From positions 8,651 through 72,650 of the forward strand of contig JBAYIT010000001.1 of NCBI GenBank assembly GCA_041665485.1: 64,000 bases of DNA, written 5' to 3'. The translations under genes and the position numbers were made by a program. Positions 46,321-64,000 of this stretch are shown piece after piece (within the stretch, counting starts at the first letter, position 1; every line of letters begins with the position of its first letter). The notes under the pieces are model-generated. The model did no database searches and was not told the origin of the DNA. It worked only from the letters and a program-made list of their open reading frames with translations. Source of the DNA: Candidatus Shapirobacteria bacterium (lineage in GTDB: Bacteria > Patescibacteriota > Microgenomatia > UBA12405).

Positions 46321-46381
46321 GACACAACTGTACCGCAGGTTTTGTGGAAGTCTAGGAGATGAATTAGTGCTAAAATAGGGC

Positions 46382-47062: not shown

Positions 47063-47562
47063 CAAAAACTAAGATAACAATTCTACTCATATCAATACTT
47101 CTAGTTGTTGGAGCAACATCCTTTATTTACCTCAATATTAATAAAATCCCTGCCGAAGATTTCAAAGCACCGGGTAAAAGTTGGCAGTCCCCTAAAAAAG
47201 TTGAGGATTATTTTATTGATAAGTTAAGATTTACTCAAAGTGATTTGGAAAGACAAAAACAAAGCGAGACGGTAGATTTTCGGCCCGGCAAAGGCTCTAC
47301 ACTTGACGCAATCATTAGTAATCTCAACTATTATGGATTCATCCGAAGTGAAAAAGCATTAATGTATGCTTTGGAGAATACGAAAGATATTACTCAAGGA
47401 AATCCGGGATTATTGTCGGTTGGTAAAAATGGGTCGATTGATATTGTTGCCAGTTACCGGATTTCGGAAAATATGACGGCTTGGGAAATAGCGGACACTC
47501 TACTTAATAAATCACACTATTTTGGTCCGAATGATGAGTATAACTATATGTTTATGCCTTAA
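47059..47562 (+). CDS. Hypothetical membrane-anchored protein (weak MltG/YceG-like N-terminal resemblance)
   Basis: TM followed by GKGSTLDAIISNLNYYGFIRS. Weak. Confidence 0.35.
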   Translation: MTKTKITILLISILLVVGATSFIYLNINKIPAEDFKAPGKSWQSPKKVEDYFIDKLRFTQSDLERQKQSETVDFRPGKGSTLDAIISNLNYYGFIRSEKALMYALENTKDITQGNPGLLSVGKNGSIDIVASYRISENMTAWEIADTLLNKSHYFGPNDEYNYMFMP

Positions 47563-47574
47563 AACTAATTAATA

Positions 47575-48294
47575 TTAGCGTGCTTCTTTTATATAAATAT
47601 CCATAAGTTTAGCTGCCCAATCGGAATAGGTTTGATATTGGCCTTCCGTTCCTTTAGAGGTATACATGTGCTTTACCATTTCAGATACTCCTTCATTTGA
47701 AATCTGGGCACATTCTGTCGTAGATAATGTCGGACACTCAGCCTTTAATTTGGCAACATACTTGTTGTAAATCGTCTGGTAACCACTGGTACCATTTGTA
47801 GTAGGACTATTTGTTTTTGACGTTACGGAATTTGTCTTAGTTGGTGCTACTGTTGGGCTAATTACTGAAATCGGCCAGTTGTCTTTCACACCTTCAATTC
47901 CAATTTTTGACCATTCGTCTTTAGACACATTGTATTCATTTAAAATTTCCTGTCGATATTTTTCTTCAAGCTCTTGGACCAATTCTGCATTTGGCTCAAC
48001 ATTTTTTTTGGCTTGTTCAGCATCTATGTGATTTAAGCTGGTAGGATATTTTTCTTCAGCTTCCTTCATTGCTCTGTCTTCTGCTTGGGCAATTTTAGTG
48101 AATATTTCCTGTTTTTCTTCTAAGCTTCTACTGCTTGTTTCAAGTGTCTTTGTGGCAGTATTCACACCATCTTGGAAGCCTTTTTGAGTATCTCTATTTT
48201 TAGCACCAATAATCATCATTAGAATGATAAAGAGAATTATCCCAGAAACTATTTTGTGGCTTAAAAACCAGTTTCGTTGCTTATCTTTTTCCAT
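47575..48294 (-). CDS. Hypothetical membrane-anchored protein
   Basis: ORF with N-terminal TM. Divergent from the XRE gene. Confidence 0.35.
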   Translation of the reverse strand: MEKDKQRNWFLSHKIVSGIILFIILMMIIGAKNRDTQKGFQDGVNTATKTLETSSRSLEEKQEIFTKIAQAEDRAMKEAEEKYPTSLNHIDAEQAKKNVEPNAELVQELEEKYRQEILNEYNVSKDEWSKIGIEGVKDNWPISVISPTVAPTKTNSVTSKTNSPTTNGTSGYQTIYNKYVAKLKAECPTLSTTECAQISNEGVSEMVKHMYTSKGTEGQYQTYSDWAAKLMDIYIKEAR

Positions 48295-48419
48295 ATATTT
48301 ATTAATTATTAATTCAACCCAATGCTAACTGCAACTTAGCACAAAGTCAAGGCTATGTCATGCCTATTTGCTAAGTAGAGCTTAGTGGAGTACAAAGGTT
48401 TTTATTTCCATACTTCGGT

Positions 48420-48635
48420 ATGAGAAGTAATGCCAAATTGTTGAAAGTTATCAGCAAAAGAATTAAGAATTGTCGCAATGAATTAGGTCTGACCCAGGAG
48501 GACTTGGCCGAGAAAGTTGGTGTGAGTCGGGTTTACATTGGTTACGTCGAGCAAGGACGCAACACTCCCTCGCTCGAGATCTTGGAAAAAATTGCCAAAG
48601 CCTTGAAAATTAATCTTTCCGGATTAATCACCTAA
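48420..48635 (+). CDS. XRE-family helix-turn-helix transcriptional regulator (Cro/CI-like)
   Basis: GLTQEDLAEKVGVSRVYIGYVEQGRNTPSLEILEKIAKAL is a canonical HTH_3. Confidence 0.7.
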   Translation: MRSNAKLLKVISKRIKNCRNELGLTQEDLAEKVGVSRVYIGYVEQGRNTPSLEILEKIAKALKINLSGLIT

Positions 48636-50196
48636 TCAAATTTACCCAATTACCCCGAGGATTAATTTGATGGAGCATTTCATGGTCCTCTCTATCAGCC
48701 CAATCTTCACCACGAATACCATTATTTCCCCGATTAGAAAAATTTACCCGAACCGCTATTGGACATCGAGATGTTAACCCTTTGGGAGGAGAAACAAAGA
48801 CATAGTTAACTAGCATAGAAAAGGCATCAACCAAATCATCGTACCTTTCTACTCCAAAGTTCAACAGTTGATCAATCAATTCACCCGAACCGTTCTTAGG
48901 AAAATAGACGTTTCCATTTTTAACGAAGTCACTAGCAATCCTTAGTCTGGTTGATTTATCCTGACCGTGAAGCTCAACTCCAATTGCAGGATAGCCAACC
49001 TTTTGTAAGTCTTGCAACATAAATGTCTGAGAAGCTACTTGTTCAACCAATATAGTACTTTTTCTTTTGGAGTTAACCGTGTTTGATAGTTCTTTAAGAA
49101 TCACCTTTACGTCTGGGTAATCTACTCTTTTGTTAAAAATTTTTGGGAGGATATAAAGAGACAAAAGATCTTTTGTTTTATAAATTCTGCCAACCAGAAT
49201 GGCTGTTTTATCAGCTTTTTCTTTTTCAGAAATAGCCGAATCAATCGAAATAATATAACCAACACAGTTGGCCTCTAGATGAGCCGGAAACACATCATAA
49301 TATCTTACCCATTCTTTTTTAATTATTTGATCTTCTGGTGGGAGGATAATTAACAAATATTCCCGATACCACGACGACTCTGATCCAACCGACATCTTTA
49401 ATTTATCAATTGCATCCATATCTGGAAATTTGTCTTTCCAAGATATATTTCGGTTACTGTCTAATAGTGGATAATTAAAAAACTTCCCACTAAGTGTGGT
49501 ATTTTCAATCATTGCTTTTAGTCTCATCAGTAAACAATCCTCGTGTAACAAATTGCCAACAACAATAAATTTCGTGTTGGTGTCACCGATGGGGAGTATC
49601 TCGCCTGTAAACCACTGAAAAGTTTTGTCTCGACTATCTCTAGTTTTGATACTATTCAAATCTTCAACGTCGTCACACACAACCAAGTCCGGCCGGTATT
49701 GACCATGTCTAATGCCTCGAATACTCTGCTCCGTTGACGCAATGGTGATTCTGGCATTGAAATTAGACAGAACGATTGATGTTGACCCCCACTCATCATT
49801 AACTTCTTGAAATGGGCCAATATCTTTTTTCAGTAATTCATTGGTTTCTAGCTCCTTTTTGATGTTCGCCAAATGAAGTCTGGCTTGGTTCTGGGTTTGG
49901 CTAACTATCAATACAAATTTTCTTTGTTGACAACCAATAATTGCCCAAATTGGATATGAAAGACTCATTAGTGTTGATTTACTAGAACCTCTAAAAGCCA
50001 CGAACACGGCCAATTTCAATCTTATATCTTCAGTAACAGAAAACATTTCGTTGTGAAATGGAGCAAATGGATGGCTTATATAGTGATTAAAGTAAATTGT
50101 AAAAAACCAAAAATGGCTGTTTCTAGCCAAAGTCTTCCGTACAGACCTATTTTTTGCAATTTGTAATTTTTCTGCTTCATTTAATACTTGTTTCAT
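48628..50196 (-). CDS. Phage terminase large subunit-like protein
   Basis: Walker-A-like FRGSSKST, Walker-B-like LVVCDDVED, C-terminal RNaseH-like nuclease region. Preceded by a small HTH protein. Confidence 0.55.
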   Translation of the reverse strand: MKQVLNEAEKLQIAKNRSVRKTLARNSHFWFFTIYFNHYISHPFAPFHNEMFSVTEDIRLKLAVFVAFRGSSKSTLMSLSYPIWAIIGCQQRKFVLIVSQTQNQARLHLANIKKELETNELLKKDIGPFQEVNDEWGSTSIVLSNFNARITIASTEQSIRGIRHGQYRPDLVVCDDVEDLNSIKTRDSRDKTFQWFTGEILPIGDTNTKFIVVGNLLHEDCLLMRLKAMIENTTLSGKFFNYPLLDSNRNISWKDKFPDMDAIDKLKMSVGSESSWYREYLLIILPPEDQIIKKEWVRYYDVFPAHLEANCVGYIISIDSAISEKEKADKTAILVGRIYKTKDLLSLYILPKIFNKRVDYPDVKVILKELSNTVNSKRKSTILVEQVASQTFMLQDLQKVGYPAIGVELHGQDKSTRLRIASDFVKNGNVYFPKNGSGELIDQLLNFGVERYDDLVDAFSMLVNYVFVSPPKGLTSRCPIAVRVNFSNRGNNGIRGEDWADREDHEMLHQINPRGNWVNLIR

Positions 50197-50609
50197 TTTT
50201 GCTCCTCCTTTTTTAAATTTTGTAAATTGTTTGGTAATACTGATGCTAGTTTTAGTGCTTTCATAACCAAAATATTTTGTTCGGGTGTTAGTTGCTCGTC
50301 TTCGTGTCCCAACTTGGCTGTTACTTCGATTTTGTTGGCATAAGCAGGGTGTCGATGATTAAGCCAATAAGCAATGGCTGAGAAATTTTTATCCTTTATG
50401 GACGAAATCAATTGCGACTCTGCCATTTCGTTAATTAAAGAGACGCCTTCACCAATAGCTATTTCTACCGTCTTAGCAAATTCCCGATCTTCATTTTTCC
50501 AACGATAGAAGGTTGCTCGGCCGATACCGATTTTTTCGCAGGCCACCTGAATGATAGGTGTTTTTTTAAGTTGCTCGATCAATAGTTGTTTATCATTATC
50601 AGTTTTCAT
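50193..50609 (-). CDS. Terminase small subunit-like HTH protein
   Basis: HTH IGIGRATFYRWKNED. Position immediately 5' of the terminase large subunit, with overlapping stop/start. Confidence 0.35.
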   Translation of the reverse strand: MKTDNDKQLLIEQLKKTPIIQVACEKIGIGRATFYRWKNEDREFAKTVEIAIGEGVSLINEMAESQLISSIKDKNFSAIAYWLNHRHPAYANKIEVTAKLGHEDEQLTPEQNILVMKALKLASVLPNNLQNLKKEEQK

Positions 50610-51337
50610 ACTTTTAATAACTTGTTATAACGGTCGACGATAATTTGGCAGTATTCTGGATCAATTTCGATTCCCAAGCATTTCCTTTTCGTCTGTTGAC
50701 AAGCAATGAGTGTTGACCCAGACCCCAGAAATGGGTCATAGACATAGTCACCAATTTGAGAGCTATTTAAGATCAAGTGTCGCAGAAGCGATATTGGCTT
50801 CATGGTGGGGTGAAGTGGACTTTTGTTAGGTTTTGGAAAAGCCAAAACACTCTTATCTTTGCTTTTAAAGAACTTGTGTGTCCCAAACCACCCATAAGCA
50901 ACAAGTTCGTGCATGGGTAGATAATCCATTCGTCCGATAACAGCATGGTTTTTTATCCAAATTAGAAGCTGACAAAATTTAAAACCTGAACCGTCAAGAG
51001 CATTCTTTAAAGCAAATATCATCTTGTCAGAGTTGAAGATATAGAAGCTATTTTTTGGAGCCAAATAGGGCTTCACTACCTCTAACCACAGCTGAGTAAA
51101 TTGTTTATATGATTCGTCAGTTTGTAGTTGATCGTTGGCAATAATCTTTCGCTTAATATTTGATTTCGAGAAGCCATCTTTACCCTCAACCAGTGCCACG
51201 GCGTACGGCGGATCTGAGAGTATTAGTGATACTTTTTTATCAACTAATAACTTTTCAATCGATATTTTATCGGTGGCATCACTACATAAAAATAAATGAT
51301 TGCCGATTGCAATTAAGTCTCCCTTTTTAATTGACAT
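50606..51337 (-). CDS. Beta-class DNA methyltransferase (N6-adenine or N4-cytosine), orphan
   Basis: Motif IV DPPY (ILSDPPYAV) N-terminal to motif I (DPFLGSGSTLIA), which is beta-class order. Confidence 0.8.
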   Translation of the reverse strand: MSIKKGDLIAIGNHLFLCSDATDKISIEKLLVDKKVSLILSDPPYAVALVEGKDGFSKSNIKRKIIANDQLQTDESYKQFTQLWLEVVKPYLAPKNSFYIFNSDKMIFALKNALDGSGFKFCQLLIWIKNHAVIGRMDYLPMHELVAYGWFGTHKFFKSKDKSVLAFPKPNKSPLHPTMKPISLLRHLILNSSQIGDYVYDPFLGSGSTLIACQQTKRKCLGIEIDPEYCQIIVDRYNKLLKV

Positions 51338-52604
51338 AAGTAACCTCCTTGCCCGTCAGTTTTGTAAAACGGGAAATAATTAAATCGCAAAAAATTGGCT
51401 CAATCTCCACCATCAAGCACTTTCGCTTTAACTGTTCGCAACTACACATGGTTGAGCCGGAACCGGCAAATAAATCTAGGACTGTGTCTCCAACTTTAGT
51501 ACAACGTCTTATCGCTTTTTCATGGAGTGTTGGACTTTTTTCAGTAGGATGACTATATTCGCTACCTGGCAATCTTTTGACTAACCAGATATTTAGCAAA
51601 TCTAAGATATCGTCTATGGTTCGATTGCCTGAGCCAATTTCTTTATTGAGAATTTCATTTAAATTTTTTGGGTTTTCAGAGATTGATGGTTTGCCTATAG
51701 TTCCATAAATACAAGCTTCATAAGATTTATTAAAAGCCACATTTGGTGTAGGAGAAAATCCGTTCTTAATCCATAAACAAACTCTCTTGTTTTCGATTCC
51801 GATTTCTTTGTATAGATCTTGGATCAAACCGATATGGCGTTCGTCATTCCATATAAATACATGGACATCAGGTTTGGAAATAGCCAGCCCATTTTCGATT
51901 ACCCTTTTTAAAAACTCGCGATATCCCAAATCGGTTTTATTGTCATCAGTTTTACCTCCATACTTTCCTTTACCACCAACACCTTTGTTGTAGTCGAGTC
52001 CAATATTAAAAGGTGGATCAAAATAGGCCATTGATACCATCTTTTCTGATGTTAATCTTTGAACAACCTTAAGATCCATGCTGTTTCCACAAACCAGCAA
52101 ATGTGGTCCGAGTTTGATGATATCCCCCAGTTTTGTCTTGGGAACTTTTATCTTCTCTATTTCCGCTTGAGTATCAAAATCGTCTTCATAAGTTTCCAAA
52201 TTTTCGTCCCAAATTTTAGATAAGTCGTTATTGTCGAAACCAATGTCCATCAATGTTTCTATGTCGAAGTTTTTGAGAAGTTCAAAATCCCAATCACCAA
52301 CTACCCGGTTCAATGTTAGATTTAGTTTTCTCTCTTTTTCGATATCAGAGATGTCAATAAAATTTACTGGAACTACCTTGTACCCCAGATCTTTAGCTAT
52401 CTTTAATCGAAAATGCCCGGCAATTACAACTCCATATCGAGACTTGTTTCCATTAGCTAAAATTGGTATCACAAAGCCATTTTCTCTAATGCTCTTTTTT
52501 AAATCAGAGATAGCTTTCTCGCTCCAATATCGTGGGTTATATTCCGAAGGTTTTAAATCTGTAACTTTTACCAGGACCGTTTTGATACTTGGTGTATTGA
52601 CCAT
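51327..52604 (-). CDS. ParB-like nuclease domain fused to beta-class DNA methyltransferase
   Basis: N-terminus KPSEYNPRYWSEKAISDLKKSIRENGFVIPIL is ParBc. Motif IV FDPPFNIG, then motif I DLFAGSGSTM. Confidence 0.8.
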   Translation of the reverse strand: MVNTPSIKTVLVKVTDLKPSEYNPRYWSEKAISDLKKSIRENGFVIPILANGNKSRYGVVIAGHFRLKIAKDLGYKVVPVNFIDISDIEKERKLNLTLNRVVGDWDFELLKNFDIETLMDIGFDNNDLSKIWDENLETYEDDFDTQAEIEKIKVPKTKLGDIIKLGPHLLVCGNSMDLKVVQRLTSEKMVSMAYFDPPFNIGLDYNKGVGGKGKYGGKTDDNKTDLGYREFLKRVIENGLAISKPDVHVFIWNDERHIGLIQDLYKEIGIENKRVCLWIKNGFSPTPNVAFNKSYEACIYGTIGKPSISENPKNLNEILNKEIGSGNRTIDDILDLLNIWLVKRLPGSEYSHPTEKSPTLHEKAIRRCTKVGDTVLDLFAGSGSTMCSCEQLKRKCLMVEIEPIFCDLIISRFTKLTGKEVTYVN

Positions 52605-52814
52605 AAAAAAAACTCCATAAAGTAATAATGCTCCCGGCCCTGCCTGGAGTGTATCTACTTTCGGAGTTTACAGGTTAAACACCTACGCTCTTGATTGAGT
52701 TAATATAATTTACCACATGTACCAGTTCCTTTCAATAGTGTTTCCCTTGATGTTTATTTGGTTGAAAAGTGTTAATAAATTTTATACAATATTGGTATCA
52801 ACTGGTAAGTAATT

Positions 52815-52988
52815 ATGGAAGAACTTTTGACATTAAATGAAACCGCTCAAATACTGAAAGTTCACCCAAACACTCTTCGATCGTGGGATAAAAAGGGGGT
52901 ATTAATTGCAATTCGGATCGGGGTAAAGAAAGCTAGAAGATACAAAAAAGAAGATATTGAAAAATTTATTAATAAGAAGAATAAATAA
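52815..52988 (+). CDS. Excisionase/AlpA-family helix-turn-helix DNA-binding protein (57 aa; not in supplied ORF track)
   Basis: Manual translation: MEELLTLNETAQILKVHPNTLRSWDKKGVLIAIRIGVKKARRYKKEDIEKFINKKNK. Fits the TIGR01764 excisionase-type HTH. Ends 2 nt before the PLD-SNF2 start. Confidence 0.55.
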   Translation: MEELLTLNETAQILKVHPNTLRSWDKKGVLIAIRIGVKKARRYKKEDIEKFINKKNK

Positions 52989-52990
52989 AC

Positions 52991-55900
52991 ATGTCATTAA
53001 TCGATAATAAAAACCAAACTTTACAAAATGCACTCAAAAATGCTTTAGTAACAGCCGACCGAATTGATATTGCGGTCGGATTTTTTTATTTCTCCGGATT
53101 TGAAGCACTGGCCGACGAGTTAAGAGATAAAAAAATACGTATTTTGGTTGGTTTGGAGGTTGATCCAAAGCTTATTTCGGAGATTTCTCAAAAAGCGAAG
53201 GATGGTGATGTTGATTTATCTAAATATCAAACCAGGGATTCAATTAATTCCAGAACAGTAAAAAAATTAAATTATGTTGATACTTTTGTGGGGTTTATGA
53301 ATGATAGTGACGTATTCGATTCAGATAAAGCTAACGAACTTTACGAACTTTATATTCAAAAAATAAACGACGGTTCTCTTGAGATTAGAAAAACTGTTGA
53401 TGATTACCACGGTAAATATTATGTAGTTCATAACAAAAAAGAAACATCTCAAAGTGGTGACTTCCCGGGTACTGTATTTTTTGGTTCCAGCAATCTTTCT
53501 TATCGAGGACTGAGTGGCCAGGGAGAATTAAATCGTTCCAGTCGAGAGAAAAATGAGTTTGATGAATTTACTGGTCAATTTGAAGAGATGTGGAGCGATT
53601 CAAAATCAATTTCAATAGCAGACGCAAACACTAAAGACCAATTTATCGAAGCGATTAAACCCCGTATTTGGAAGTACTGCACACCTCTCCCTTATTACCT
53701 ATATATTCGAGTACTGCACGAGATATTTTATCAACAGGAAATTAATACACTCAAAACTCCCAAAGCCACCACTAATGGTCTTTACATTGATCTGGAATAT
53801 CAGATTGATGCCATTAAAATGGTTATCGACAAACTCAACAAATATGATGGCGCCATTCTTGCCGATGTTGTCGGTCTTGGAAAAAGCATTATTGCTTCTG
53901 CTGTAGCTAGGAACATGGACGCAAAGACGGTGATAATTGCTCCTCCACACCTTATGTCCCAATGGGAAGAATATAAAGAACAATTTGGCATCAGGGGGTC
54001 GAAAGTATTCAGTTCGGGAAAGATTCAAGAAATTTATGATCGATATCATGAGGCTAAAGAACCCGTATTTTTCATTCTTGATGAAGCTCATCGATATCGT
54101 AATGAAGACACGAATGACTACAAGTTATTACACCAAGTTTGTCGTAGTCATCCAGAAAATAAAGTTTTATTGTTAACTGCCACCCCTTTCAATAATGATC
54201 CAAAAGATGTTTTTGCATTAATAAAGTTGTTTCAAACTCCTGGACAATCAACCATTCGCTCAGTCGACAATTTAAGTCTCCGGTATCGAGACCTTATCCA
54301 ACGATATAAAAAATTACGCAGAGACATGACAAAAGGAGCTATCCAGGAAGCGGTTGATAAAGAAACGGCCGAAATTGCGGCGGAACAGAGAAGATTAATT
54401 GAAACAATTATTATCCGAAGATCGCGACTTGATCTTAACTACATCACTCGTTATCGGGAGGACTTACAACGTCAAAATATTTCCTTTGCTGAAGTACGAG
54501 GTCCAGATCCACTTGAATACGATCTGGGAGAACTTTTTGAACCTTATATGAAAACTTTGGATTTAATCATTAAACCAGATAATGAAGGATTCCTTGGTGC
54601 CCGATATAAGCCTACATCGGAGACCTATATGGATGAAGAGAATCGCAAGAAATTTATCGATAAATATAAAAGTGAGTTTGACGATATTGAGGATCTTCGG
54701 ATTGCTCAGTCAAACTTGGCAAAATTTATGAGACGACTCTTGGTTATGCGTTTTGAAAGCTCAAAAGATGCTTTCCGTTCTACATTGGAAAAAATGATTG
54801 AGTCTAATAAACTTATTGAACATTGGTGGAGTGAGCTGGGAATTGTACCAATTATGAAAAAAGGGCAACTTCCCGATCCGCAGGACTATGACTTAGAAGA
54901 TGGTGAATCTGATTCGCTTACTGAGGAATTGGAATTATTGCGAAATAAAAAAGGTTTCCTGGAAATAAGCAAGGACATGTTAAATCCTCAATTTATTGAA
55001 GATGTACAACACGATACAAAACTATTACAGTCAATTCATGACGATTGGTATTCAAATCCCCAATTTGCTGACCTAGATCCGAAACTAGATAACATTATTG
55101 AAAAAATTGAGGAATTATTGTCTGAAAATAAAGATAGAAAAATTGTTATCTTCTCTAGCTATAAAGACACGGTCGATTATTTGTATAAGATAATGGTCGA
55201 TCGTGGATTTAGCCGCGTTACTAAATATTCAGCTTCGGAGGGAACAGACGCAAACAAAAAAATAATTCGTCAAAACTTTGATGCTTCAATTCAGGAAGCA
55301 CAACAAACAAATGACTTTGATGTTTTAATAGCCACAGACGCATTGAGCGAAGGATTTAATCTTCATAGGGCTGGAATTGTTATTAACTATGACATACCCT
55401 ACAACCCCACTAGAGTTATCCAAAGAGTTGGACGCATTAATCGTATAAATAAGAAGGTTTTTGAGTTCCTAAATATCTACAATTGTTTTCCAACAGCAAT
55501 CGGCGAAGAAGAAACTAGAGTAAAAAGTATTTCTACTCTCAAAATGAAACTAATCAATGCGGTTGTGGGAAGTGATACAAAAACTCTAACCAAAGATGAA
55601 GAATTGGTTAGTTATTTTAAAGATGAATTTGACAAAGCCCAAAAAGAGGACGAAAGGTTGTCTTGGGATACAGTACATAGAGAAAATTTTGAAAGAGCAT
55701 TAAAAGACAGTGATCTTATGAAAAAAGTCCTGGAGCTTCCTAGAAGGAGTCGTATAAAAAGGATTGGTCGTAAAAACTCCGGTACAATAGTATTTGGGAA
55801 GAAGGGGCAGAACTCCGTGTTTACTTATGGTATTACTACTGACGACATTAGAGTTACTTCAGCCGAGGAATCTTTGCCAGTTTTCGAAGCAAAACCAGAT

Positions 55901-56275
55901 GAAAAAAGTGAATTAGTTGATAAGGAGTTTACTAATATTTTTAATTTGGCTAAAGAAAAACTTTTCGCCAAACACGAGTTGCCCCAAATAAAGGGTAGAA
56001 GGGCAACTGCTATTAATATTTTAAAAGTGATTGCTGACAAAATGCCAATTGCTAGAGATTATTGCGAAGACATTATTTCTATTATCAAGACCCTTGATGA
56101 TATTAGCGATGGGTCTCTAAAAGATATTTCTCAATTGAATGCAAACAAGGTTGATGAGTCATACAAAAAATTGTTAAACATTATTCCGGAAGTGTATGTG
56201 AGAAATATTTTAAATCGATCTAAACATACTGACGAGGCACAAGAATTACTGTTGTTTGCGGAACAATTACTATGA
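52991..56275 (+). CDS. PLD-family (HKD) nuclease domain fused to SNF2/DEAH-box superfamily-2 helicase
   Basis: N-terminus has HxK...GSxN (VHNKKETSQSGDFPGTVFFGSSNLS). Helicase motifs I LADVVGLGKS, II ILDEAHRYRN, III LLTATPFNN, V LIATDALSEGFNL, VI QRVGRINRI. Confidence 0.85.
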   Translation: MSLIDNKNQTLQNALKNALVTADRIDIAVGFFYFSGFEALADELRDKKIRILVGLEVDPKLISEISQKAKDGDVDLSKYQTRDSINSRTVKKLNYVDTFVGFMNDSDVFDSDKANELYELYIQKINDGSLEIRKTVDDYHGKYYVVHNKKETSQSGDFPGTVFFGSSNLSYRGLSGQGELNRSSREKNEFDEFTGQFEEMWSDSKSISIADANTKDQFIEAIKPRIWKYCTPLPYYLYIRVLHEIFYQQEINTLKTPKATTNGLYIDLEYQIDAIKMVIDKLNKYDGAILADVVGLGKSIIASAVARNMDAKTVIIAPPHLMSQWEEYKEQFGIRGSKVFSSGKIQEIYDRYHEAKEPVFFILDEAHRYRNEDTNDYKLLHQVCRSHPENKVLLLTATPFNNDPKDVFALIKLFQTPGQSTIRSVDNLSLRYRDLIQRYKKLRRDMTKGAIQEAVDKETAEIAAEQRRLIETIIIRRSRLDLNYITRYREDLQRQNISFAEVRGPDPLEYDLGELFEPYMKTLDLIIKPDNEGFLGARYKPTSETYMDEENRKKFIDKYKSEFDDIEDLRIAQSNLAKFMRRLLVMRFESSKDAFRSTLEKMIESNKLIEHWWSELGIVPIMKKGQLPDPQDYDLEDGESDSLTEELELLRNKKGFLEISKDMLNPQFIEDVQHDTKLLQSIHDDWYSNPQFADLDPKLDNIIEKIEELLSENKDRKIVIFSSYKDTVDYLYKIMVDRGFSRVTKYSASEGTDANKKIIRQNFDASIQEAQQTNDFDVLIATDALSEGFNLHRAGIVINYDIPYNPTRVIQRVGRINRINKKVFEFLNIYNCFPTAIGEEETRVKSISTLKMKLINAVVGSDTKTLTKDEELVSYFKDEFDKAQKEDERLSWDTVHRENFERALKDSDLMKKVLELPRRSRIKRIGRKNSGTIVFGKKGQNSVFTYGITTDDIRVTSAEESLPVFEAKPDEKSELVDKEFTNIFNLAKEKLFAKHELPQIKGRRATAINILKVIADKMPIARDYCEDIISIIKTLDDISDGSLKDISQLNANKVDESYKKLLNIIPEVYVRNILNRSKHTDEAQELLLFAEQLL

Positions 56276-59200
56276 TGCAATTAAATAATGATTACCAACG
56301 TGATGATTTTCTAAAATTTCTCGAAGAAGATTTTTTAACTGACTTCAAAAGAGATATTAGATCTGTAAATACTAGTAGTCTCTCGTCTATTCAAAAAGCT
56401 AATTACTTGGGTGAAAGTAGGGATTTGGATCTTCAGGTTTTTGAGTTCTTATTTGAAGGCTCTCCAAACAAACGCATCGCTTTAACAAAAGATGCTTTTT
56501 CAGTTATGCGATCAAGCGCTATTTATAATGCATTGGCCGTCTTCCATTCTCCAAACAAGAAAGACTGGAGATTCTCCTTGATGACTGCTACCCCAGAACC
56601 GACTCAAAAAGGTAAGGTGTCACTTTCATATTCAAATCCTAGGCGCTTGTCTTTCTTTTTGGGTCCTAATGCTAAAACAAACACTCCCACAAAATTTCTC
56701 ATAAACAAGGGGAAAATTATTGACCTTGAAGACTTGAAAAAAAGATTTTCTATAGAAGTTGTTAATAGGGAGTTCTATAAAGAAATATCCCAAACATTCA
56801 CAAAATTAGTTAATGGATTACTTAAACTACCATCAACCCAAGATAAAAGCCAAGCTAATATTGATTTTGCAGTCCGGTTAATTGGTCGTGTTATTTTTTG
56901 TTGGTTTTTACGTGAGAAAAAAAGTAATACTGGAATTGCGCTAATGCCAAAAGACCTTTTATCACTCGAAGCGGTTAAGGAAAACGATGATTATTATCAC
57001 AAAATCCTTGAGCCAATATTCTTTGAAGTTCTTAACAAACCAATCAAACTAAGAAAAGAAGATTTTTCTAAAGAACCTTTCTCTTCTGTTCCTTATCTTA
57101 ATGGAGGCTTATTTTCCCCTCAAGTAGATGACTACTACAAGCGAACGAATGGAGATTTTCAGTCGCAACACCACAACACACTAATTGTCCCAGATAGTTG
57201 GATTAAAAGCTTCTATGAAATTCTTGAAACTTACAACTTTACAATTGATGAGAACACAAGTTATGACGAAGAGCTTTCCATTGACCCGGAAATGTTGGGT
57301 AGAATTTTCGAAAATCTTTTGGCGGAAATTAACCCAGAAACAGGGGAATCGGCCAGAAAAAGCACAGGGAGTTTCTATACCCCCAGAATTATCGTTAATT
57401 ATATGGTTGATGAGAGTCTATTACTTTATCTTAAGGAAAATACTGGGATACATGAAGAAAAGTTGCGGACAATTATTAGTTATGACCTTGATGATGATTT
57501 GGAAAATCCCGTAACTACAGATGAAAAAGAAAAAATAATCGATGCACTAGAAAAAGTTAAAATTCTTGACCCAGCCTGTGGTTCTGGAGCTTTTCCAATC
57601 GGGGCATTACAAAAAATTGTTTTTATTCTTCAACAAACCGATCCAGACGGGCAAATGTGGTTCAAAAAGCAGATAAAAAACACTTCTCCGGAAATAAAAA
57701 GGGTTGTAGAACGTGAGTTTGCTCATAAAAATTTTGATTATATTAGAAAGCTTGGAATCATTAGAGAAAACATATACGGAATTGATATTCAACCAATTGC
57801 TACAGAAATCTCACGACTTCGTTGCTTCCTAACTCTTGTAGTCGACGAAGGCATCCAAGAAGACCTAGAAAATAGAGGTATAGAACCACTACCAAACCTG
57901 GATTTTAAATTTGTTACAGCTAACACGCTGATCGGTCTTCCTGGGTCACAAACAATTAATCAAATGGGATTGTTTGAAGATGATGCAGGAATTAAGGAGC
58001 TAAAAGAGCTTCGAGATATGTTTTTTAATGCCTCAGGTACAGAGAGAGAACAGCTTAAACTTGAATTTGTCCAATCACAAAATCACATGTTTCAACGGTT
58101 AGTAAGTGAAGGAAGAAGGGGTCATGCGGACTTAACTACAAAATTAACTACTTGGGATCCGTTTAGCCACAAGACATCCTCATGGTTTGACTCAGAATGG
58201 ATGTTTGGAATTAAGGATGGTTTTAATATTGTCATTGGGAACCCTCCATATGTCCAATTACAAACAAACGGGGGATACCTTGCAAACCTGTACGAAAATC
58301 AAAGTTATAGTACGTTCTGTAGATCAGGAGATATCTATTCTCTATTTTATGAAAAAGGTATTCAGTTGATTACCAACAAAGGTTGTTTGTGTTTTATATC
58401 TTCTAATAAATGGATGAGAACATCATATGGTTCAAAATTAAGAAGCTTTCTAAGTAAGCTAAACATGCTAAATCTTATTGATTTTGCAGGATTTCAAGTG
58501 TTCGAAACAGCCGCTGTAGATACCACCATAGCCCTAGTGCAAAGATCAGAAAATCTAAATAAACTTGAAGCTGCACATTTCAAGGACAATTATGTCCAAG
58601 GTGATGATATTAGGGACTATTTTAATAAAAATAAGGTTGATTTAAAAAACTTAGATAGCGAACCATGGTTTATCGGCGGATATGAAACAATTAGTCTCAA
58701 ATCCAAGATTGAACATGAAGGAGTACCTATTAAACGATGGCCGGAATTATCAATTAACTATGGAATAAAAACTGGGGCCAATGATGTTTTTATAATCAAC
58801 GAAGAATTTAGGAATAAATTAATTAATTTGGAACCACAATCAGCCAGTATAATGAAACCTCTTCTTCGTGGATTACATACAAAAAACTATTACACTGAGT
58901 GGGAAAATGACTACTTACTTTACGTTCCATGGCATTTTCCATTAGAAGGTGCCATTAAAGGTTCCTCGTTAAAAGCAGAAGAAACTTTTAAAGTGCAATA
59001 TCCTCGATTATATGAATATTTTCATAGTCGGAAAGAACGACTACTTAAAAGAAACAAGGCTGAGACAGGGATAAGATATGAATGGTATGCGCTACAAAGG
59101 AGTGGGTCAAGCTATAAATCTGATTTTCTCAAACCAAAAGTGGTTTGGATGAATATGAATAGAGGGTGGAAATTTGCATATTCAGAAAGAGATTTTTATG

Positions 59201-59553
59201 TCGATATGACTTTGAACTTTTTAGCATCTGAAAAATACGCAAAATTTATGACAGGCGTTTTGTCAAGTCCTGTACACAAATGGTACTTTTTACAAACCGG
59301 AAGAATTTTTGATAACGGCGGCTTTATGACAAAGGTAGACAGCGTGAGTAATTTCCCCGTACCAACGATTAATGAAGACAATAAATTAATTTTTACTGCA
59401 GTTGAAAAACTAATAGAAAAAATACTTGACATTAAGTCACATAATAAAGAAGCAGATACAATAAAAATTGAAAACGAATTGAACGAACAAGTATATCTAC
59501 TTTATAAACTTACACCGGATGAAATTGAAATTATTAAAGAGGCAACAAAATAA
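56272..59553 (+). CDS. Large gamma-class N6-adenine DNA methyltransferase with TaqI_C-type specificity domain (PglX/Eco57I/MmeI-like architecture)
   Basis: NGGLF helical-domain motif, motif X GSFYTP, motif I ILDPACGSGAFP, motif IV VIGNPPYVQ, C-terminal GIKTGANDVFII (TaqI_C). ATGA start/stop overlap with the upstream gene. Confidence 0.85.
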   Translation: MMQLNNDYQRDDFLKFLEEDFLTDFKRDIRSVNTSSLSSIQKANYLGESRDLDLQVFEFLFEGSPNKRIALTKDAFSVMRSSAIYNALAVFHSPNKKDWRFSLMTATPEPTQKGKVSLSYSNPRRLSFFLGPNAKTNTPTKFLINKGKIIDLEDLKKRFSIEVVNREFYKEISQTFTKLVNGLLKLPSTQDKSQANIDFAVRLIGRVIFCWFLREKKSNTGIALMPKDLLSLEAVKENDDYYHKILEPIFFEVLNKPIKLRKEDFSKEPFSSVPYLNGGLFSPQVDDYYKRTNGDFQSQHHNTLIVPDSWIKSFYEILETYNFTIDENTSYDEELSIDPEMLGRIFENLLAEINPETGESARKSTGSFYTPRIIVNYMVDESLLLYLKENTGIHEEKLRTIISYDLDDDLENPVTTDEKEKIIDALEKVKILDPACGSGAFPIGALQKIVFILQQTDPDGQMWFKKQIKNTSPEIKRVVEREFAHKNFDYIRKLGIIRENIYGIDIQPIATEISRLRCFLTLVVDEGIQEDLENRGIEPLPNLDFKFVTANTLIGLPGSQTINQMGLFEDDAGIKELKELRDMFFNASGTEREQLKLEFVQSQNHMFQRLVSEGRRGHADLTTKLTTWDPFSHKTSSWFDSEWMFGIKDGFNIVIGNPPYVQLQTNGGYLANLYENQSYSTFCRSGDIYSLFYEKGIQLITNKGCLCFISSNKWMRTSYGSKLRSFLSKLNMLNLIDFAGFQVFETAAVDTTIALVQRSENLNKLEAAHFKDNYVQGDDIRDYFNKNKVDLKNLDSEPWFIGGYETISLKSKIEHEGVPIKRWPELSINYGIKTGANDVFIINEEFRNKLINLEPQSASIMKPLLRGLHTKNYYTEWENDYLLYVPWHFPLEGAIKGSSLKAEETFKVQYPRLYEYFHSRKERLLKRNKAETGIRYEWYALQRSGSSYKSDFLKPKVVWMNMNRGWKFAYSERDFYVDMTLNFLASEKYAKFMTGVLSSPVHKWYFLQTGRIFDNGGFMTKVDSVSNFPVPTINEDNKLIFTAVEKLIEKILDIKSHNKEADTIKIENELNEQVYLLYKLTPDEIEIIKEATK

Positions 59554-59556
59554 AAT

Positions 59557-60261
59557 ATGGCTAGAGACACATTTGTTTTGAACATAGATCTTGAGAGTGG
59601 AGGTAGAAGCAGTGCTCAGATAAGCGAATATCCAGATAAGTGTCCAACGTGCCACGAAGGTGGACAGCCAAAGTTTGTTTTGGCTCATTCATTAGGTGCA
59701 GCTTGGGATTATGACGAAGTTATTGAAGCCATTTTTAAATGTCCTATAAATAAGTGTAAAAGATATTATATTGGCTATTATTACAAACCTAGTAGAACAG
59801 GCGATATCTTCTTTCTTAAAGAAACGCTTGCTCCGCAGTTTTGGAAACCAATATACTTTTCAGACGAAATCAAGAATATTAGTTCACGATTTGAAAGAAT
59901 TTACAATCAAGCCGCTATTGCTGAAAACTTTGGTTTGGATGAAATTGCCGGTGGTGGTTACCGAAAGTCATTAGAATTTTTAGTAAAGGATTACCTTATT
60001 TACCTTAAATTAAAGACTAAAACCCAAATAGCCGAATTAAAGCTTAGTAAAGCTGTTGCCTTAATTAATGACAATCGTATCCAAGTTTGTGCTAAAAGAG
60101 CTGCCTGGTTAGGTAATGATGAAATTCATTTCAATCGTGTCTGGGAAAACAAAGATATTCAAAACCTTAAGGAATTAATAAAACTTTCTACTAATTTAAT
60201 GGAAAGTGATGTAATTGCTAAAAAATACGAGAAAGAAATGCCTGAAAAAAAGAAAAATTAA
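59557..60261 (+). CDS. Zinc-ribbon protein with possible HEPN/DUF4145-like C-terminal domain
   Basis: CPTC...CPINKC ribbon. C-terminal ...CAKRAAWLGNDEIHFN weakly resembles DUF4145. Starts 3 nt after the MTase stop. Confidence 0.4.
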   Translation: MARDTFVLNIDLESGGRSSAQISEYPDKCPTCHEGGQPKFVLAHSLGAAWDYDEVIEAIFKCPINKCKRYYIGYYYKPSRTGDIFFLKETLAPQFWKPIYFSDEIKNISSRFERIYNQAAIAENFGLDEIAGGGYRKSLEFLVKDYLIYLKLKTKTQIAELKLSKAVALINDNRIQVCAKRAAWLGNDEIHFNRVWENKDIQNLKELIKLSTNLMESDVIAKKYEKEMPEKKKN

Positions 60262-60265
60262 TTTT

Positions 60266-60499
60266 ATGAATAAATATCAACAAAGAATCAGAAACTTATA
60301 CATTTTTGACGCTAATAAACCTTTTCGTCTCTCCCGGTCAAAAATCGACATGTTTTTGGAGTGTCCCCGTTGTTTTTATCTGGATAGAAGACTGGGGCTT
60401 GGGAGACCAAGCACGCCGAGATGGTCACTAAACACAGTTGTGGATGAACTGCTTAAAATAGAATTTGACTTACTTCGAAAAAAATATGTTTATGCTTAA
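60266..60499 (+). pseudogene. N-terminal fragment of RecB-family (COG2887/PD-(D/E)xK) nuclease, truncated
   Basis: LSRSKIDMFLECPRCFYLDRRLGL matches the conserved N-terminal SPSRxxxFxxCPxxYxxR motif of these ~260-aa nucleases. The ORF stops after ~77 aa and the next ORF is in another frame. Confidence 0.35.
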
Positions 60500-61286
60500 A
60501 ACCTATTTTAAACAACTCATTTCATCGTTAGATTTACTTGGTGGTGCTTTTTCTGGATTAATTTTATTAATCACAGCACTTACCTACTTGTCTTATAATT
60601 TTTCAAAAGCCCCAGTGCTGATTAAGTTAGTTGTTCTGTTCATGGTCTTAGTTATTGTAATTTTTGTTGTTAGGCAGTTCAGGAAAATAAAAGACGTATT
60701 AGACGAGAAAGTTCTAAACAAGGAAATTCAATTTAAAGTTGATAGGGATAAAAAAATCAATAAATTTGACCCTTCAACAATCCCCACAACTTCAGACATT
60801 AAGAAGTGGGTAAAGTTATTGTCTATTAAATCAAGAAAATGGGCGAGTGACGCTAAGATATCGAGTTACACGTTCTACTACACATTAAAGTGGCATAAAT
60901 CTTATGGAGTTAATCACACTTTTGGTATTAGTTTTAATTCTGATGAAAGAGGTGAGAACTTAACTCTTTATATAGAAAGTAACATGGAAATCCTCACAGA
61001 ATCTATTGGTGCTAATAAACCAAAGATATCAATTGACTATGGAGAAGCCCCTTTTTATTTAAAAGTACATAATTGGAGAAAAGCTGTGATTTTCTTGTAT
61101 AGAAGGATGGAAAATAAAGTTGAAGATAGTTTCGAAATAAAAGTATCCAACAGTATGGATAGAAAAATATTCCTTTATTTTAATTATTCTTATGGACCCA
61201 AAAAAATACATTCCAGTTTTCATGGAGAGTACGATGGCAAGATACTAACTCTATATAGGACAGGTGAAAAAATTAATTTAAAATAA
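60465..61286 (+). CDS. Hypothetical membrane protein (2 N-terminal TM)
   Basis: ORF with hydrophobic N-terminus. Confidence 0.4.
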   Translation: MTYFEKNMFMLKTYFKQLISSLDLLGGAFSGLILLITALTYLSYNFSKAPVLIKLVVLFMVLVIVIFVVRQFRKIKDVLDEKVLNKEIQFKVDRDKKINKFDPSTIPTTSDIKKWVKLLSIKSRKWASDAKISSYTFYYTLKWHKSYGVNHTFGISFNSDERGENLTLYIESNMEILTESIGANKPKISIDYGEAPFYLKVHNWRKAVIFLYRRMENKVEDSFEIKVSNSMDRKIFLYFNYSYGPKKIHSSFHGEYDGKILTLYRTGEKINLK

Positions 61287-61288
61287 AT

Positions 61289-61600
61289 ATGCAAGATATT
61301 GATCAAAAAATTAAAAGCGTTCTTCAAGATCTCCGAGAAGCCCACGCAGAGTCGGAAAAGCATTATGCTAAACAAATTATTCCAGGCGAACCCACAAAGC
61401 CACATGATATATACGATATGGCTTTGGCATTTGATACCGAAAAGAAAATACATTTGGAACTTAATCTTGCTAGAAGTGAAAAGTTTCCAGATCGATTCTC
61501 AGTAGAGGAGGTTGAAAGCATAAAAAGGGAAATTAACGAACTTTCTTTTAACATTAAGGCTTGGAGAAATAGAAAATTCCCCTGTCAATTTAAAGAGTAA
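61289..61600 (+). CDS. Small hypothetical protein
   Basis: ORF 2 nt after the previous gene. Confidence 0.35.
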   Translation: MQDIDQKIKSVLQDLREAHAESEKHYAKQIIPGEPTKPHDIYDMALAFDTEKKIHLELNLARSEKFPDRFSVEEVESIKREINELSFNIKAWRNRKFPCQFKE

Positions 61601-61604
61601 AAGT

Positions 61605-62624
61605 ATGACTGACAATATTAAACCAATTATTGAAGACATTAAAGCTCGTGGACTTGCTGCAATCGAAGATGTTGTTGCCAGGAAGGAATCTGAAATGTTT
61701 TTTATCGATTTTAAACTAACACAAAGAGATGATTACTCAAGACAAAGGACTTTATTCGAGTCTGATAAAAAGAATTTAGCAAAAGCAATTTCAGGCTTTG
61801 GAAATTCGGAAGGAGGTTTAATTATATGGGGAGTTGACGCTTCCGGAAGTTCTGATGACTATGCAAAATCAATTAAGTTAATTAAAAATATAGATAATTT
61901 TAAATCTCTCCTTGAGTCGTTTGTCTCTTTATTAACAGTCCCAGCTCATAAAAACGTTGAAAGTTTTGTGGTTAAAAAATCAAATAAGGATACTAATGGT
62001 ATTGCTGTGACTGTTATTCCAAAAGGCAACGAACGCCCTTATCAATGTATTGGTGATTATAAATATTACATGAGAGCCGGAGACTCATTTGTACCTGTCC
62101 CTCATGGGGTCTTACAAGGTATGTTTGGTCAAACTCCTCAACCAAATGTGTTTTGGATGTTTAATATTAGTAAAATTCCTAAAATTGATGAAAGTAAGGC
62201 TATGACTTGGCAAGCGGGACTGATGGCCGTTAATGGAGGCCTTGGAATAGGTGAAGACATTTATGGTTTCGCTCGAGTATGGACTCCAGGTGATAACTCA
62301 GAAATTGGTATCGAACTAATTGATCAGGTGAATTACGATTTTTTTAAAGCATATGGTATTGAATTCAGTTTTATGTCAAAGAAGGATTTTAGGCTTGGAT
62401 GTGAACAAAGGTCACAAATGATGGTTTTAAATTTTTGGCTACGTCCTCCATTTACTAAAGAACTTTATATAGATCTATTAATTGGAGGAAGAAATCAGCA
62501 AATTTATAGAAGGCTTATTAAAAGAAAACCAAAAGAGTTAACTTCTATTTACAAAAAATGCCTTACTGATCCATCAAGTGAACGCATTGAAGAAATATGG
62601 GGAGGCGAAGGAAAGATAGTCTAG
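61605..62624 (+). CDS. AlbA_2 (Schlafen-like, 'divergent AAA') domain protein
   Basis: FESDKKNLAKAISGFGNSEGGLIIWGVD matches the PF04326 core motif. Confidence 0.6.
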   Translation: MTDNIKPIIEDIKARGLAAIEDVVARKESEMFFIDFKLTQRDDYSRQRTLFESDKKNLAKAISGFGNSEGGLIIWGVDASGSSDDYAKSIKLIKNIDNFKSLLESFVSLLTVPAHKNVESFVVKKSNKDTNGIAVTVIPKGNERPYQCIGDYKYYMRAGDSFVPVPHGVLQGMFGQTPQPNVFWMFNISKIPKIDESKAMTWQAGLMAVNGGLGIGEDIYGFARVWTPGDNSEIGIELIDQVNYDFFKAYGIEFSFMSKKDFRLGCEQRSQMMVLNFWLRPPFTKELYIDLLIGGRNQQIYRRLIKRKPKELTSIYKKCLTDPSSERIEEIWGGEGKIV

Positions 62625-62642
62625 TTAGTGACATTCAGTGAT

Positions 62643-64000
62643 ATGGATTATCTAAAAGACAAACGAGAATATATTGACCGCTATGACTTGTGGACCATTG
62701 AGGAATGTTTAAAGTGGTACTGGGATCTTAAAGATAATTTTCAAAAACACCGAAAGAACAAGGAATTTATTAAATATTCTGATGAGGAATTTGACGAAGA
62801 GGTGGGTAAAGTTTTATACCGCTTCTTATTGACTGTCAAAACCCAAAGATTTGAAAATAAACAAAAAACCATTGAAAAGTGGATCGATGACGACAAAAGG
62901 CTTCAAGACAAACAAGACAATACTCAGGCTCCCGAAAATATTAAGTGCCCAATATGCGGCAGGCAAATGGAATTAACCATAAAGGGCTTACACAATACTT
63001 ATGGCAAAGATCCAAAAATGTGGTTTATGTTTGAATGCAAAAAATGTAATAAACGAAGATCGGTTAACGAAGATGGAAGTGAGTGGAAGTACGAAAAACC
63101 AAAATGTCCCAAATGTAAGGCTGTACTAAAAACTGAGAATAAGTACGAGGGTGAGATTGCGACATTCATCGAAGAATGTCCCAAGTGTGGTTACAAAAAC
63201 GTGGATGTCAGCGATCATAAAAAATGGAAACGAGAGCAAGAGGCCAAGGAAAAAAGAAATAAGGAATTATTGGAGAAATATCGGGAGGAGTTTTGTTTAT
63301 CCGAAGAAAAAGGGAAAGAAATGGTTGAGCTAATGGAAGTTTTAGCCTTTGCCCATGAGGTCAGAGAGTTTGAAGCCAGTAAATATGACGATCCGGCTTT
63401 TGAAAAAGCGGCCACAATTAACAAGATTGGTATTGCTGAGGTAGAAAAAACGTTGGGTGAGGTTTTAGAAAAGGAAAGTTACACCAAGTTCTCAACAGAT
63501 AAACCCGAAATTGACCGCTATGTAATCGTCCCGTTTAGTCTTCAGGATGGTGATAGTTTGAGAAATAGAAGAGATACCCTGCGTGAATTAGAAAAGCTTA
63601 TTTGTAAGACCCTTGAGGGGACTAATTGGCGATTATTAAGCGGGAGTTTAATGAACCGACTCGGATTTATTTCGGGAAGATTAAAAGGATACGAACAGGA
63701 GGAAGACTTGCAGGAAATTTGTGGTTACAAAAAAGAGAAAGAGAAGAAAAAGTTGGATCCGGAGAAACTGGCGAAATATGGGAGTAACAATATGGTCCAA
63801 TTGGAAAAGATGCTTGGTGAACATGATGGGGTTGAAAACATGAGAAAGAGAAGACTTGTTAAAGAACCAAATGGATTTTTACTTGACAATACGGGTAGTT
63901 CATATACCTGTACTATTTGCCATGAACAATCACCTACGGGAGAAACATGGTGGTTACCTGATGCCTTGTGGTGTAAGGAGTGTAAAAGAAATATAGATGA
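62643..64000 (+). CDS. Zinc-ribbon-rich protein, 3' end outside window (not in supplied ORF track)
   Basis: Manual translation shows an open frame from ATG 62643 to the window end (>450 aa). It has repeated CxxC pairs (CPICG, CKKCN, CPKCK, CPKCG, CTICH, CKECK). Confidence 0.5.
   Translation, partial: MDYLKDKREYIDRYDLWTIEECLKWYWDLKDNFQKHRKNKEFIKYSDEEFDEEVGKVLYRFLLTVKTQRFENKQKTIEKWIDDDKRLQDKQDNTQAPENIKCPICGRQMELTIKGLHNTYGKDPKMWFMFECKKCNKRRSVNEDGSEWKYEKPKCPKCKAVLKTENKYEGEIATFIEECPKCGYKNVDVSDHKKWKREQEAKEKRNKELLEKYREEFCLSEEKGKEMVELMEVLAFAHEVREFEASKYDDPAFEKAATINKIGIAEVEKTLGEVLEKESYTKFSTDKPEIDRYVIVPFSLQDGDSLRNRRDTLRELEKLICKTLEGTNWRLLSGSLMNRLGFISGRLKGYEQEEDLQEICGYKKEKEKKKLDPEKLAKYGSNNMVQLEKMLGEHDGVENMRKRRLVKEPNGFLLDNTGSSYTCTICHEQSPTGETWWLPDALWCKECKRNID

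Follow-up and report, generated by a model that had tools for sequence, protein, structure and literature searches.

A zinc-ribbon/HEPN-like gene behind a restriction-type operon of Candidatus Shapirobacteria as a candidate single-protein, RAZR-like abortive-infection RNase

Does a small gene that directly follows a restriction-type operon belong to that system, or is it a defence gene in its own right? We address this question for a 64,000-nucleotide (nt) stretch of DNA from Candidatus Shapirobacteria bacterium (assembly GCA_041665485.1, contig JBAYIT010000001.1, positions 8,651 to 72,650 of the forward strand; hereafter the window), in which a gene for a 234-amino-acid (aa) zinc-ribbon/HEPN-like protein lies behind genes for a PLD-SNF2 helicase and a methyltransferase. 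A first-pass annotation of the sequence had suggested that this protein might be an effector or sensor of the PLD-SNF2/methyltransferase system, or else the product of an independent abortive-infection (Abi) gene. With moderate confidence, we predict that the gene is an autonomous, single-protein Abi cassette encoding an RNase similar in design to RAZR, the ring-activated zinc-finger RNase. We favour this reading because of the architecture and fold of the protein, its conserved and covarying active-site residues, the cassette behaviour of the gene, the prophage location of relatives, and the RAZR precedent. The putatively zinc-binding Cys4 beta domain would sense infection, probably through binding a phage protein, and the divergent HEPN (DUF4145-like) domain, as a dimer or higher oligomer, would cleave RNA and shut down translation. 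The gene itself would be cargo of a defence island on a tRNA-Ser element, independent of the operon though probably co-transcribed with it.

The open reading frame (ORF), with its ATG start confirmed, is a real conserved gene and no chance ORF, since an identical protein (100%) is annotated as a hypothetical protein in a Candidatus Shapirobacteria metagenome-assembled genome, a word-indexed search returns 347 homologs at E ≤ 1e-3, and a scan of 185,579 species-representative genomes shows a relative encoded in at least 471 of them, spread over many phyla. Members of the family are also carried by approximately 48 temperate phages, mainly of Streptococcus. Among the PHROGs, phrog_1305 matches the full length of the protein (E=1.8e-31) and is labelled "DNA binding protein", a label that is an unverified annotation. 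The family statistics given below come from an alignment of 57 relatives and from an extended set of 134 unique members.

In an AlphaFold2 (AF2) model built from the alignment (predicted local distance difference test, pLDDT, 90.3), both cysteine pairs sit in an N-terminal beta domain, with strands at residues 8-11, 19-22, 39-46, 55-61, 70-76, and 84-91, and this domain is followed by a linker and then by a helical domain. All four cysteines are conserved in 131 of the 134 unique members, and the domain is a putative zinc binder. Two CxxC pairs had been read at the N-terminus; the first stands as such (C29-P-T-C32), whereas the second is a Cx4C pair (C62-PINK-C67). The isolated N-domain model (pLDDT 81) has no significant fold match in the PDB by Foldseek (best E=0.53), and it matches neither the RAZR chain nor any PDB zinc ribbon. 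For the whole model, the top Foldseek matches in the PDB are all HEPN proteins (1wol, 2hsb, 4nqf, 2q00, 8xeh, and 8yuf), the best being ST0689 (1wol; E=0.018, probability 1.00, TMt 0.59), together with AF_0298 (2hsb) and 2q00 (TMt 0.61). Further HEPN matches include HEPN-MNT toxins, Csx1, and the sacsin HEPN domain. The Foldseek E-values are weak, but the HEPN ranking is consistent, and in the prediction the protein has the helical-bundle fold of HEPN domains. Family models point the same way: when the relatives are scanned singly, 43 of 57 match the Pfam family DUF4145 (PF13643) at E ≤ 1 (best E=1e-5), the matches fall where expected and span profile positions ~13-85 of 88, and several homologs are named DUF4145 domain-containing by NCBI. 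The HEPN/DUF4145-like C-terminus that had been proposed, with structure prediction as its check, is thus supported by a helical HEPN-like domain in the AF2 model, by the Foldseek ranking, and by the PF13643 matches of the relatives.

Conservation within the family is highest at the predicted active site. The segment CAKRAAWLGNDEIHFN (residues 178-193) is the most conserved stretch of the family, and the residues invariant in the 57-sequence alignment are C62, C67, G132, G134, E140, L142, K144, A182, W184, L185, N187, D188, and H191. The active-site motif of the 234-aa protein reads K-R181-A-A-W-L-G186-N187-D-E-I-H191, with an Rx9H spacing from Arg181 to His191 in the family; N187 is found in 134 of 134 members, H191 in 133, and R181 in 126. 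Positions 136 (59962-59964) and 186 (60112-60114) covary perfectly. Arg136 is paired with Gly186 in 128 of the 134 members and Gly136 with Arg186 in 5, one member has Arg136/Ala186, and none is without an Arg at both positions; Gly136 occurs only where residue 186 is Arg. The five Gly136/Arg186 variants regain the canonical HEPN R-N-x3-H. The swap arose several times, because the nearest relatives of most variants are ordinary Arg136/Gly186 proteins (the variant P0023, for example, is 71% identical to P0022). Covariation of this kind is expected if one catalytic centre needs an Arg that can be supplied from either helix, and it suggests that the catalytic arginine migrated between helices. Together with the near-invariant Asn187 and His191, the perfect swap argues that the active site is under selection and that the domain is an active enzyme and no degenerate HEPN; the pattern fits, though it does not prove, an active site with a relocated Arg.

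The closest characterised analogue of the protein is RAZR, formerly PD-T7-4 (Zhang et al., Nature 2026, PMC13017515), which had been listed as "Zn finger-HEPN" (RRL46918.1, Escherichia coli UMB1727; Vassallo et al. 2022, PMC9519451). In RAZR (PDB 9Y9C, 9Y6U), an N-terminal Cys4 zinc-ribbon domain, on which defence specificity depends, binds ring-shaped phage proteins, among them the Erf-like Gp77 of SECphi27 and T7-like portals, while Arg146 and His154 of the C-terminal DUF4145/HEPN domain are both essential; a 24-mer forms around the ring, and this single gene brings about non-specific RNA cleavage and abortive infection (PMC13017515). RAZR is therefore a precedent for a small zinc-finger/HEPN protein that senses phage ring assemblies and triggers abortive infection. 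With the same architecture experimentally established as an Abi RNase (PMC13017515), the earlier suggestion of an independent Abi gene is the best-supported reading of the locus, and RNase activity, phage-protein sensing, and an Abi phenotype are what we infer for the 234-aa protein.

Both RAZR and the 234-aa protein are single polypeptides of ~220-235 aa, in which an N-terminal Cys4 domain that opens with a CPxC(H) knuckle is followed by a linker and a C-terminal DUF4145/HEPN-like helical domain. A helix-2 Arg, a GN-x3-H motif, and a C-terminal (M/L)PE tail are conserved in both, and the family shares with RAZR its nature as a single-gene system on mobile elements and prophages. For alignment, RAZR residues 99-165 (...ADIC-R146-IVGNQAV-H154...) were retrieved from chain 9y9c_OA with a generic DUF4145-style bait, the bait itself not counting as evidence, and full-length RAZR-type genes were gathered from plasmids and phages via database fragments and tblastn. 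The GN..H of the 234-aa protein aligns with G149-N150...H154 of chain 9y9c_OA. An hhalign comparison with a thin RAZR profile yields 183 collinear columns at E=4.3e-4 (0.1-0.6 for reversed controls), and this alignment pairs both zinc knuckles, YRKSLEFL with LRLALQKL, GNDEIH with GNNAVH, and the terminal MPE with LPE; the N-domain alone aligns with the RAZR-type knuckles at E=0.0018 (control 0.19). The similarity is marginal; remote common ancestry of the two families within the DUF4145 clade is probable.

By the tests available, the 234-aa family nevertheless stands outside RAZR, as what its profiles mark as a separate family of like architecture. Four RAZR-type proteins match the PADLOC model for PD-T7-4 (PDLC04109) at 1e-71 to 1e-91, although they are just 36-48% identical to one another, whereas 56 of the 57 relatives have no match to it and the remaining one reaches E=0.019; six further relatives, three phage members included, gave 0 matches. 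Similarly, RAZR-type controls score 61-63 bits against PF13643. Streptococcus phage IPP16 (KY065457.1; 4867-5187 and 6953-7594) carries one RAZR-type DUF4145 gene and one gene of the 234-aa family in its lysogeny region, and therefore the two are paralogs able to coexist. A true RAZR/PD-T7-4 gene (PADLOC 9.8e-87) was also seen in the Vibrio filamentous phage 10N.261.54.B5_PE001 (L109, 1309-1974), whose genome is 11.5 kb and inovirus-like (Tubulavirales), and there it adjoins a DUF2726 gene.

Several observations weigh against the prediction of a RAZR-like Abi RNase. The 234-aa protein has zero matches to Pfam, NCBIfam, and PADLOC models, with no match to PF13643 even at E ≤ 10 and none to the PD-T7-4 model at E ≤ 1, and the PF13643 scores of its relatives (15.1-19.4 bits) are below the gathering threshold of 23.1. 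With a 42-sequence RAZR profile, hhalign gives only E=0.089 over the C-terminal 62 columns. Hidden Markov model and phmmer searches of the PDB with the 234-aa protein and the family profile miss chain 9y9c_OA, though the database includes 9Y6U and 9Y9C and a search of it does find Gp77, and the Foldseek PDB lists of the model are without 9Y9C and 9Y6U. The N-domain is ~25 residues longer than that of RAZR, with six strands and a Cx4C second knuckle. In the active site, the His and GN are common to both, but the Arg of the RAZR motif R-x2-GN-x3-H is not matched: the catalytic Arg146 of RAZR aligns with Ala183 (A/T/V/S in the family), the family keeping instead Arg181 and the Arg136/Arg186 pair, and most members lack a canonical Rx4-6H or RAZR-type Rx7H motif. 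Finally, the family gene stands last in restriction-type clusters, 2-8 nt downstream, both in the window and in six of seven distinct contexts that share 65% identity or more, a position that may reflect functional coupling.

Genomic context bears directly on the question of partnership. Co-occurrence with the PLD-SNF2/methyltransferase pair, which had been proposed as a check, was examined by tblastn with the two proteins in 101 homolog loci, each taken up to ±10 kb where the contig allows. No PLD-SNF2 or methyltransferase ortholog adjoins any homolog, and the sole matches are a 58-aa Helicase_C motif in L093 and a 27% methyltransferase-domain match in L096/L097; linkage to the pair is not conserved. 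Nucleotide similarity between the window and close loci runs from ~59553 to ~60255, which is essentially the ORF, and the flanks are unrelated. Because DNA similarity stops at the ORF borders, we read the gene as having moved as a discrete cassette. Across 75 non-redundant loci, the two genes upstream of each (150 proteins) comprise 139 Pfam families, the commonest being Xre-type helix-turn-helix (HTH), resolvase, phage integrase, LexA/S24, OLD-TOPRIM, and IS110 transposase. By their predicted families, these neighbours are a mobile-element/defence-island signature without a fixed partner. With orthologs in 0 of 101 loci, similarity that ends at the ORF borders, and neighbours this heterogeneous, the idea of an effector or sensor of the PLD-SNF2/methyltransferase system was not supported.

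Relatives are carried by prophages and islands. In the streptococcal phages inspected (Javan197 and EJ-1), the family gene is in the lysogeny module, co-oriented with the repressor (cI) and integrase genes and divergent from cro/antirepressor, and such a place in the lysogeny module is that of prophage-expressed exclusion or Abi genes. Close homologs adjoin serine recombinases of 506-508 aa and are also found in islands beside Abi_alpha and NmeDI_C genes. For example, an NmeDI_C protein, the family gene, and an Abi_alpha protein are consecutive in L004 (8949-11355; also in L005-L007), each 2 nt apart, and together with an adjoining MerR/DUF7380/EMARD_N protein and a serine recombinase they make up a compact defence islet. 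The islet belongs to a Microgenomates genome from many samples, its protein being listed in 56 collection blocks. In Aeribacillus phage AP45 (L104, 2970-4651), a NERD nuclease gene (PF08378, 7e-14) shares 4 nt with the start of the family gene, and HicAB lies upstream of this nuclease-plus-HEPN pair and terminase genes downstream.

The alternative that survives best, although we consider it unlikely, is that the protein serves restriction-type systems in general as an accessory or back-up module, that is, a suicide RNase encoded by the last gene of restriction-modification (R-M) operons that would act when restriction fails or is inhibited. Its logic would be analogous to that of PrrC with EcoprrI. 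PrrC and RloC are anticodon nucleases linked to type I R-M loci, in which a latent RNase forms a second line of defence; they have ABC-ATPase-like N-domains and a specific R-M partner, whereas the 234-aa protein lacks both, its partners varying from locus to locus. We rejected a specific guard role like that of PrrC for the 234-aa protein, the upstream partners being unrelated to one another. A generic association with R-M-type genes may exist in the closest clade, though there is none with the PLD-SNF2/methyltransferase pair. The closest homolog (84% identity; L093, 1-4790) follows a helicase, a 1079-aa Eco57I/N6_Mtase/Type_ISP_C methyltransferase, and a 149-aa ORF, and its helicase and methyltransferase resemble a type ISP enzyme split into two genes, like the pair of the window in kind and yet, by sequence, no ortholog of it. 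In L096 the family gene follows an MmeI-like type IIG enzyme, and in L001, L004, L013, and L099 it follows NmeDI_C-domain genes, with or without a small ORF.

The terminal position of the family gene, 2-8 nt after restriction-type genes or small ORFs in the close contexts, favours a back-up role, as does the NERD nuclease gene that overlaps it in phage AP45. Known systems lend further plausibility. Anantharaman et al. (2013) described a DUF4145-like HEPN clade as "in operon with R-M" and fused to restriction endonuclease/helicase modules (PMC3710099), and they had catalogued zinc-ribbon fusions as well. The clade has the helical HEPN fold that is predicted here; the 234-aa protein differs from that clade in being unrecognised by PF13643 and in the displaced Arg of its R...H motif. 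BxaP, a DUF4145/HEPN-type gene inside BREX, gives Abi-like protection on its own (PMC10799925). It is analogous to a back-up module in its logic, and like the 234-aa gene it is embedded in a methyltransferase-based defence locus; compared by description, BxaP has an N-terminal DUF4145 domain, a HEAT-like C-terminal domain, and no zinc ribbon, unlike the 234-aa protein. On the other side, the restriction-type clusters upstream of close homologs (65-84% identity) are mutually unrelated, and the partners represent at least four enzyme families without relationship to each other, which makes a specific partnership between proteins unlikely. Among relatives below 60% identity, the neighbours are mixed, the families that recur do not include R-M domains, in most copies the upstream gap is long or the neighbour divergent, and the prophage copies adjoin repressor and integrase genes and no R-M genes. 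In addition, short intergenic gaps are normal in this compact genome, and BxaP and RAZR each defend alone.

A more far-reaching version, which we put forward as quite unlikely, would make the family a second zinc-ribbon/HEPN sensor lineage, with a new beta-rich zinc sensor domain and a rewired active site whose catalytic Arg comes from helix 2 or is Arg181, in place of the canonical position. In the Candidate Phyla Radiation (CPR)/Patescibacteria it would have been recruited to the co-translated end of numerous restriction systems unrelated to each other, where it would act as a generic fail-safe and kill cells in which restriction has been overcome. A HEPN domain joined to a beta-rich domain in one protein is also the design of Ishtar1 and Ishtar2, anti-plasmid single proteins from defence neighbourhoods with a DUF4145 or DUF3644 HEPN domain (bioRxiv 10.64898/2026.07.06.735840). 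Compared by description, these share that design with the 234-aa protein; they differ in having the HEPN domain N-terminal and the beta-rich domain C-terminal, and in their target, which is conjugative plasmids.

We regard as improbable a role as a zinc-ribbon regulator that binds nucleic acids or as a HEPN adaptor without catalytic activity, such as an operon controller or a prophage regulator. Such a role would agree with the "DNA binding protein" label given to homologs by phrog_1305 and by RefSeq phage records, with the absence of the canonical HEPN Arg at the RAZR-equivalent position (Ala183), and with the place of the family gene beside cI/cro in prophages. The label, however, is unverified, and Pfam scans of the 234-aa protein and its relatives found no HTH or other DNA-binding domain. 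The invariance of Asn187/His191 and the way in which Arg136 and Arg186 compensate for each other indicate that a catalytic centre has been maintained, and in RAZR a zinc ribbon joined to DUF4145 has been shown by experiment to act as an RNase. That the protein is a sensor or effector dedicated to the PLD-SNF2 helicase/methyltransferase system of the window, as its third component, is highly improbable and largely refuted by the co-occurrence test: a 3-nt gap without promoter or terminator, and a closest homolog that also stands behind a helicase and a large methyltransferase (with a 58-aa helicase C-domain stretch 48% identical), speak for it, but that stretch is a generic Helicase_C motif, the L093 methyltransferase is not detectably related to that of the window, neither partner lies within 10 kb in the other loci, DNA homology ends at the ORF borders, and the family is far more widespread than a fixed partnership would allow.

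Taken as an autonomous RAZR-like Abi cassette, the gene would represent a sizeable sister family of the RAZR design, CPR bacteria included, that is missed by current defence-finder models (PADLOC, NCBIfam, and Pfam thresholds). What would be new is a sister family whose sensor domain differs and whose arginine is relocated; the concept itself is not unexpected after RAZR. If active, the family would widen the known repertoire of single-gene HEPN immune sensors, the Arg136/Arg186 swap would be a natural experiment in active-site rewiring, and the different sensor domain would have triggers that can be mapped. The use of the result lies in annotation and in a lead to a second zinc-ribbon/HEPN sensor lineage. 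For the locus, it suggests annotating the PLD-SNF2/methyltransferase genes as a two-gene (plus HTH) system and the 234-aa gene as a separate neighbour.

The immediate surroundings of the gene are consistent with a shared transcript (Table 1). The ORF list and the sequence confirm that the gene starts 3 nt (AAT) after the 1093-aa methyltransferase ORF, which ends at 59553, as had been noted. The methyltransferase start in turn overlaps the end of the PLD-SNF2 helicase gene (56272 vs 56275). At the junction of the methyltransferase and 234-aa genes, neither a sigma-70-like promoter on the plus strand nor a terminator-like site was found; because no such site splits the two, the 234-aa gene is probably co-transcribed with the HTH/PLD-SNF2/methyltransferase operon. 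The 3-nt gap was rejected as a special signal, abutting or overlapping genes being the norm in the window. On a larger scale, positions 44277-64000 of the window look like an element integrated at tRNA-Ser that carries the 234-aa locus. GC content falls from 0.40-0.45 to 0.33-0.38 after ~45 kb, and the strong positive GC skew of the first 44 kb is lost.

Table 1. Features of the window around the 234-aa gene and within its product (positions are those of the window; residues are those of the 234-aa protein)
Feature	Position	Strand	Basis
tRNA-Ser, left end of integrated element	44277-44364	+	ARAGORN
Large serine recombinase	44998-46476	-	phrog_95 integrase 3e-67
Terminase large subunit	48628-50196	-	
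Two ParB/DNA-methyltransferase genes	50606-52604	-	
Promoter-like site, upstream of HTH gene	52762-52790	+	Promoter scan, 10/12 match, best + strand site
57-aa HTH_17/MerR-type gene, head of putative operon	52815-52988	+	HTH_17 6e-12
1094-aa PLD(HKD)-SNF2 helicase, first large operon gene	52991..56275	+	Pfam PLDc_2, SNF2-rel_dom, Helicase_C; PADLOC HKD+Snf2 4.8e-37
1093-aa Eco57I/type IIG-like methyltransferase	56272..59553	+	Pfam Eco57I 2e-37, TaqI_C; PADLOC REase_MTase_IIG 5.7e-122
Gene for 234-aa zinc-ribbon/HEPN-like protein	59557..60261, stop codon included	+	ORF list, sequence, homologs
N-terminal six-stranded beta domain, putative sensor/zinc-binding	residues 8-91, 59578..59829	+	AF2 models
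First putative zinc knuckle, C29-P-T-C32	59641..59652	+	C29 55/57, C32 56/57; aligns with first CPxC of RAZR-type proteins (hhalign)
Second putative zinc knuckle, C62-PINK-C67 (Cx4C)	59740..59757	+	Both Cys 57/57
C-terminal helical HEPN/DUF4145-like domain	residues 103-227, 59863..60237	+	AF2 helices, pLDDT ~90; Foldseek; relatives match PF13643
Motif GYRKSLEFLVKDY with Arg136	residues 134-146, 59956..59994	+	R136 53/57; aligns with LRLALQKL of RAZR-type proteins
HEPN-type active-site helix motif R181-AAWLGNDEI-H191	60097..60129	+	R181 56/57; W184, L185, N187, D188, H191 57/57

Downstream of the 234-aa gene, a 77-aa ORF (60266-60499, +) follows directly, which is similar to no more than the first ~27 residues, at the N-terminus, of a PD-(D/E)XK (PDDEXK_1) nuclease (E=0.01) and which, by this match, looks like what is left of a truncated gene for a RecB/Cas4-like nuclease. 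A predicted membrane protein of 273 aa (60465-61286) and a 103-aa ORF without clear family then lie between the 234-aa gene and a gene at 61605-62624 (+) for a 339-aa protein with a Schlafen/AlbA_2 domain (PF04326, 3.5e-9), a domain that is frequent in defence neighbourhoods.

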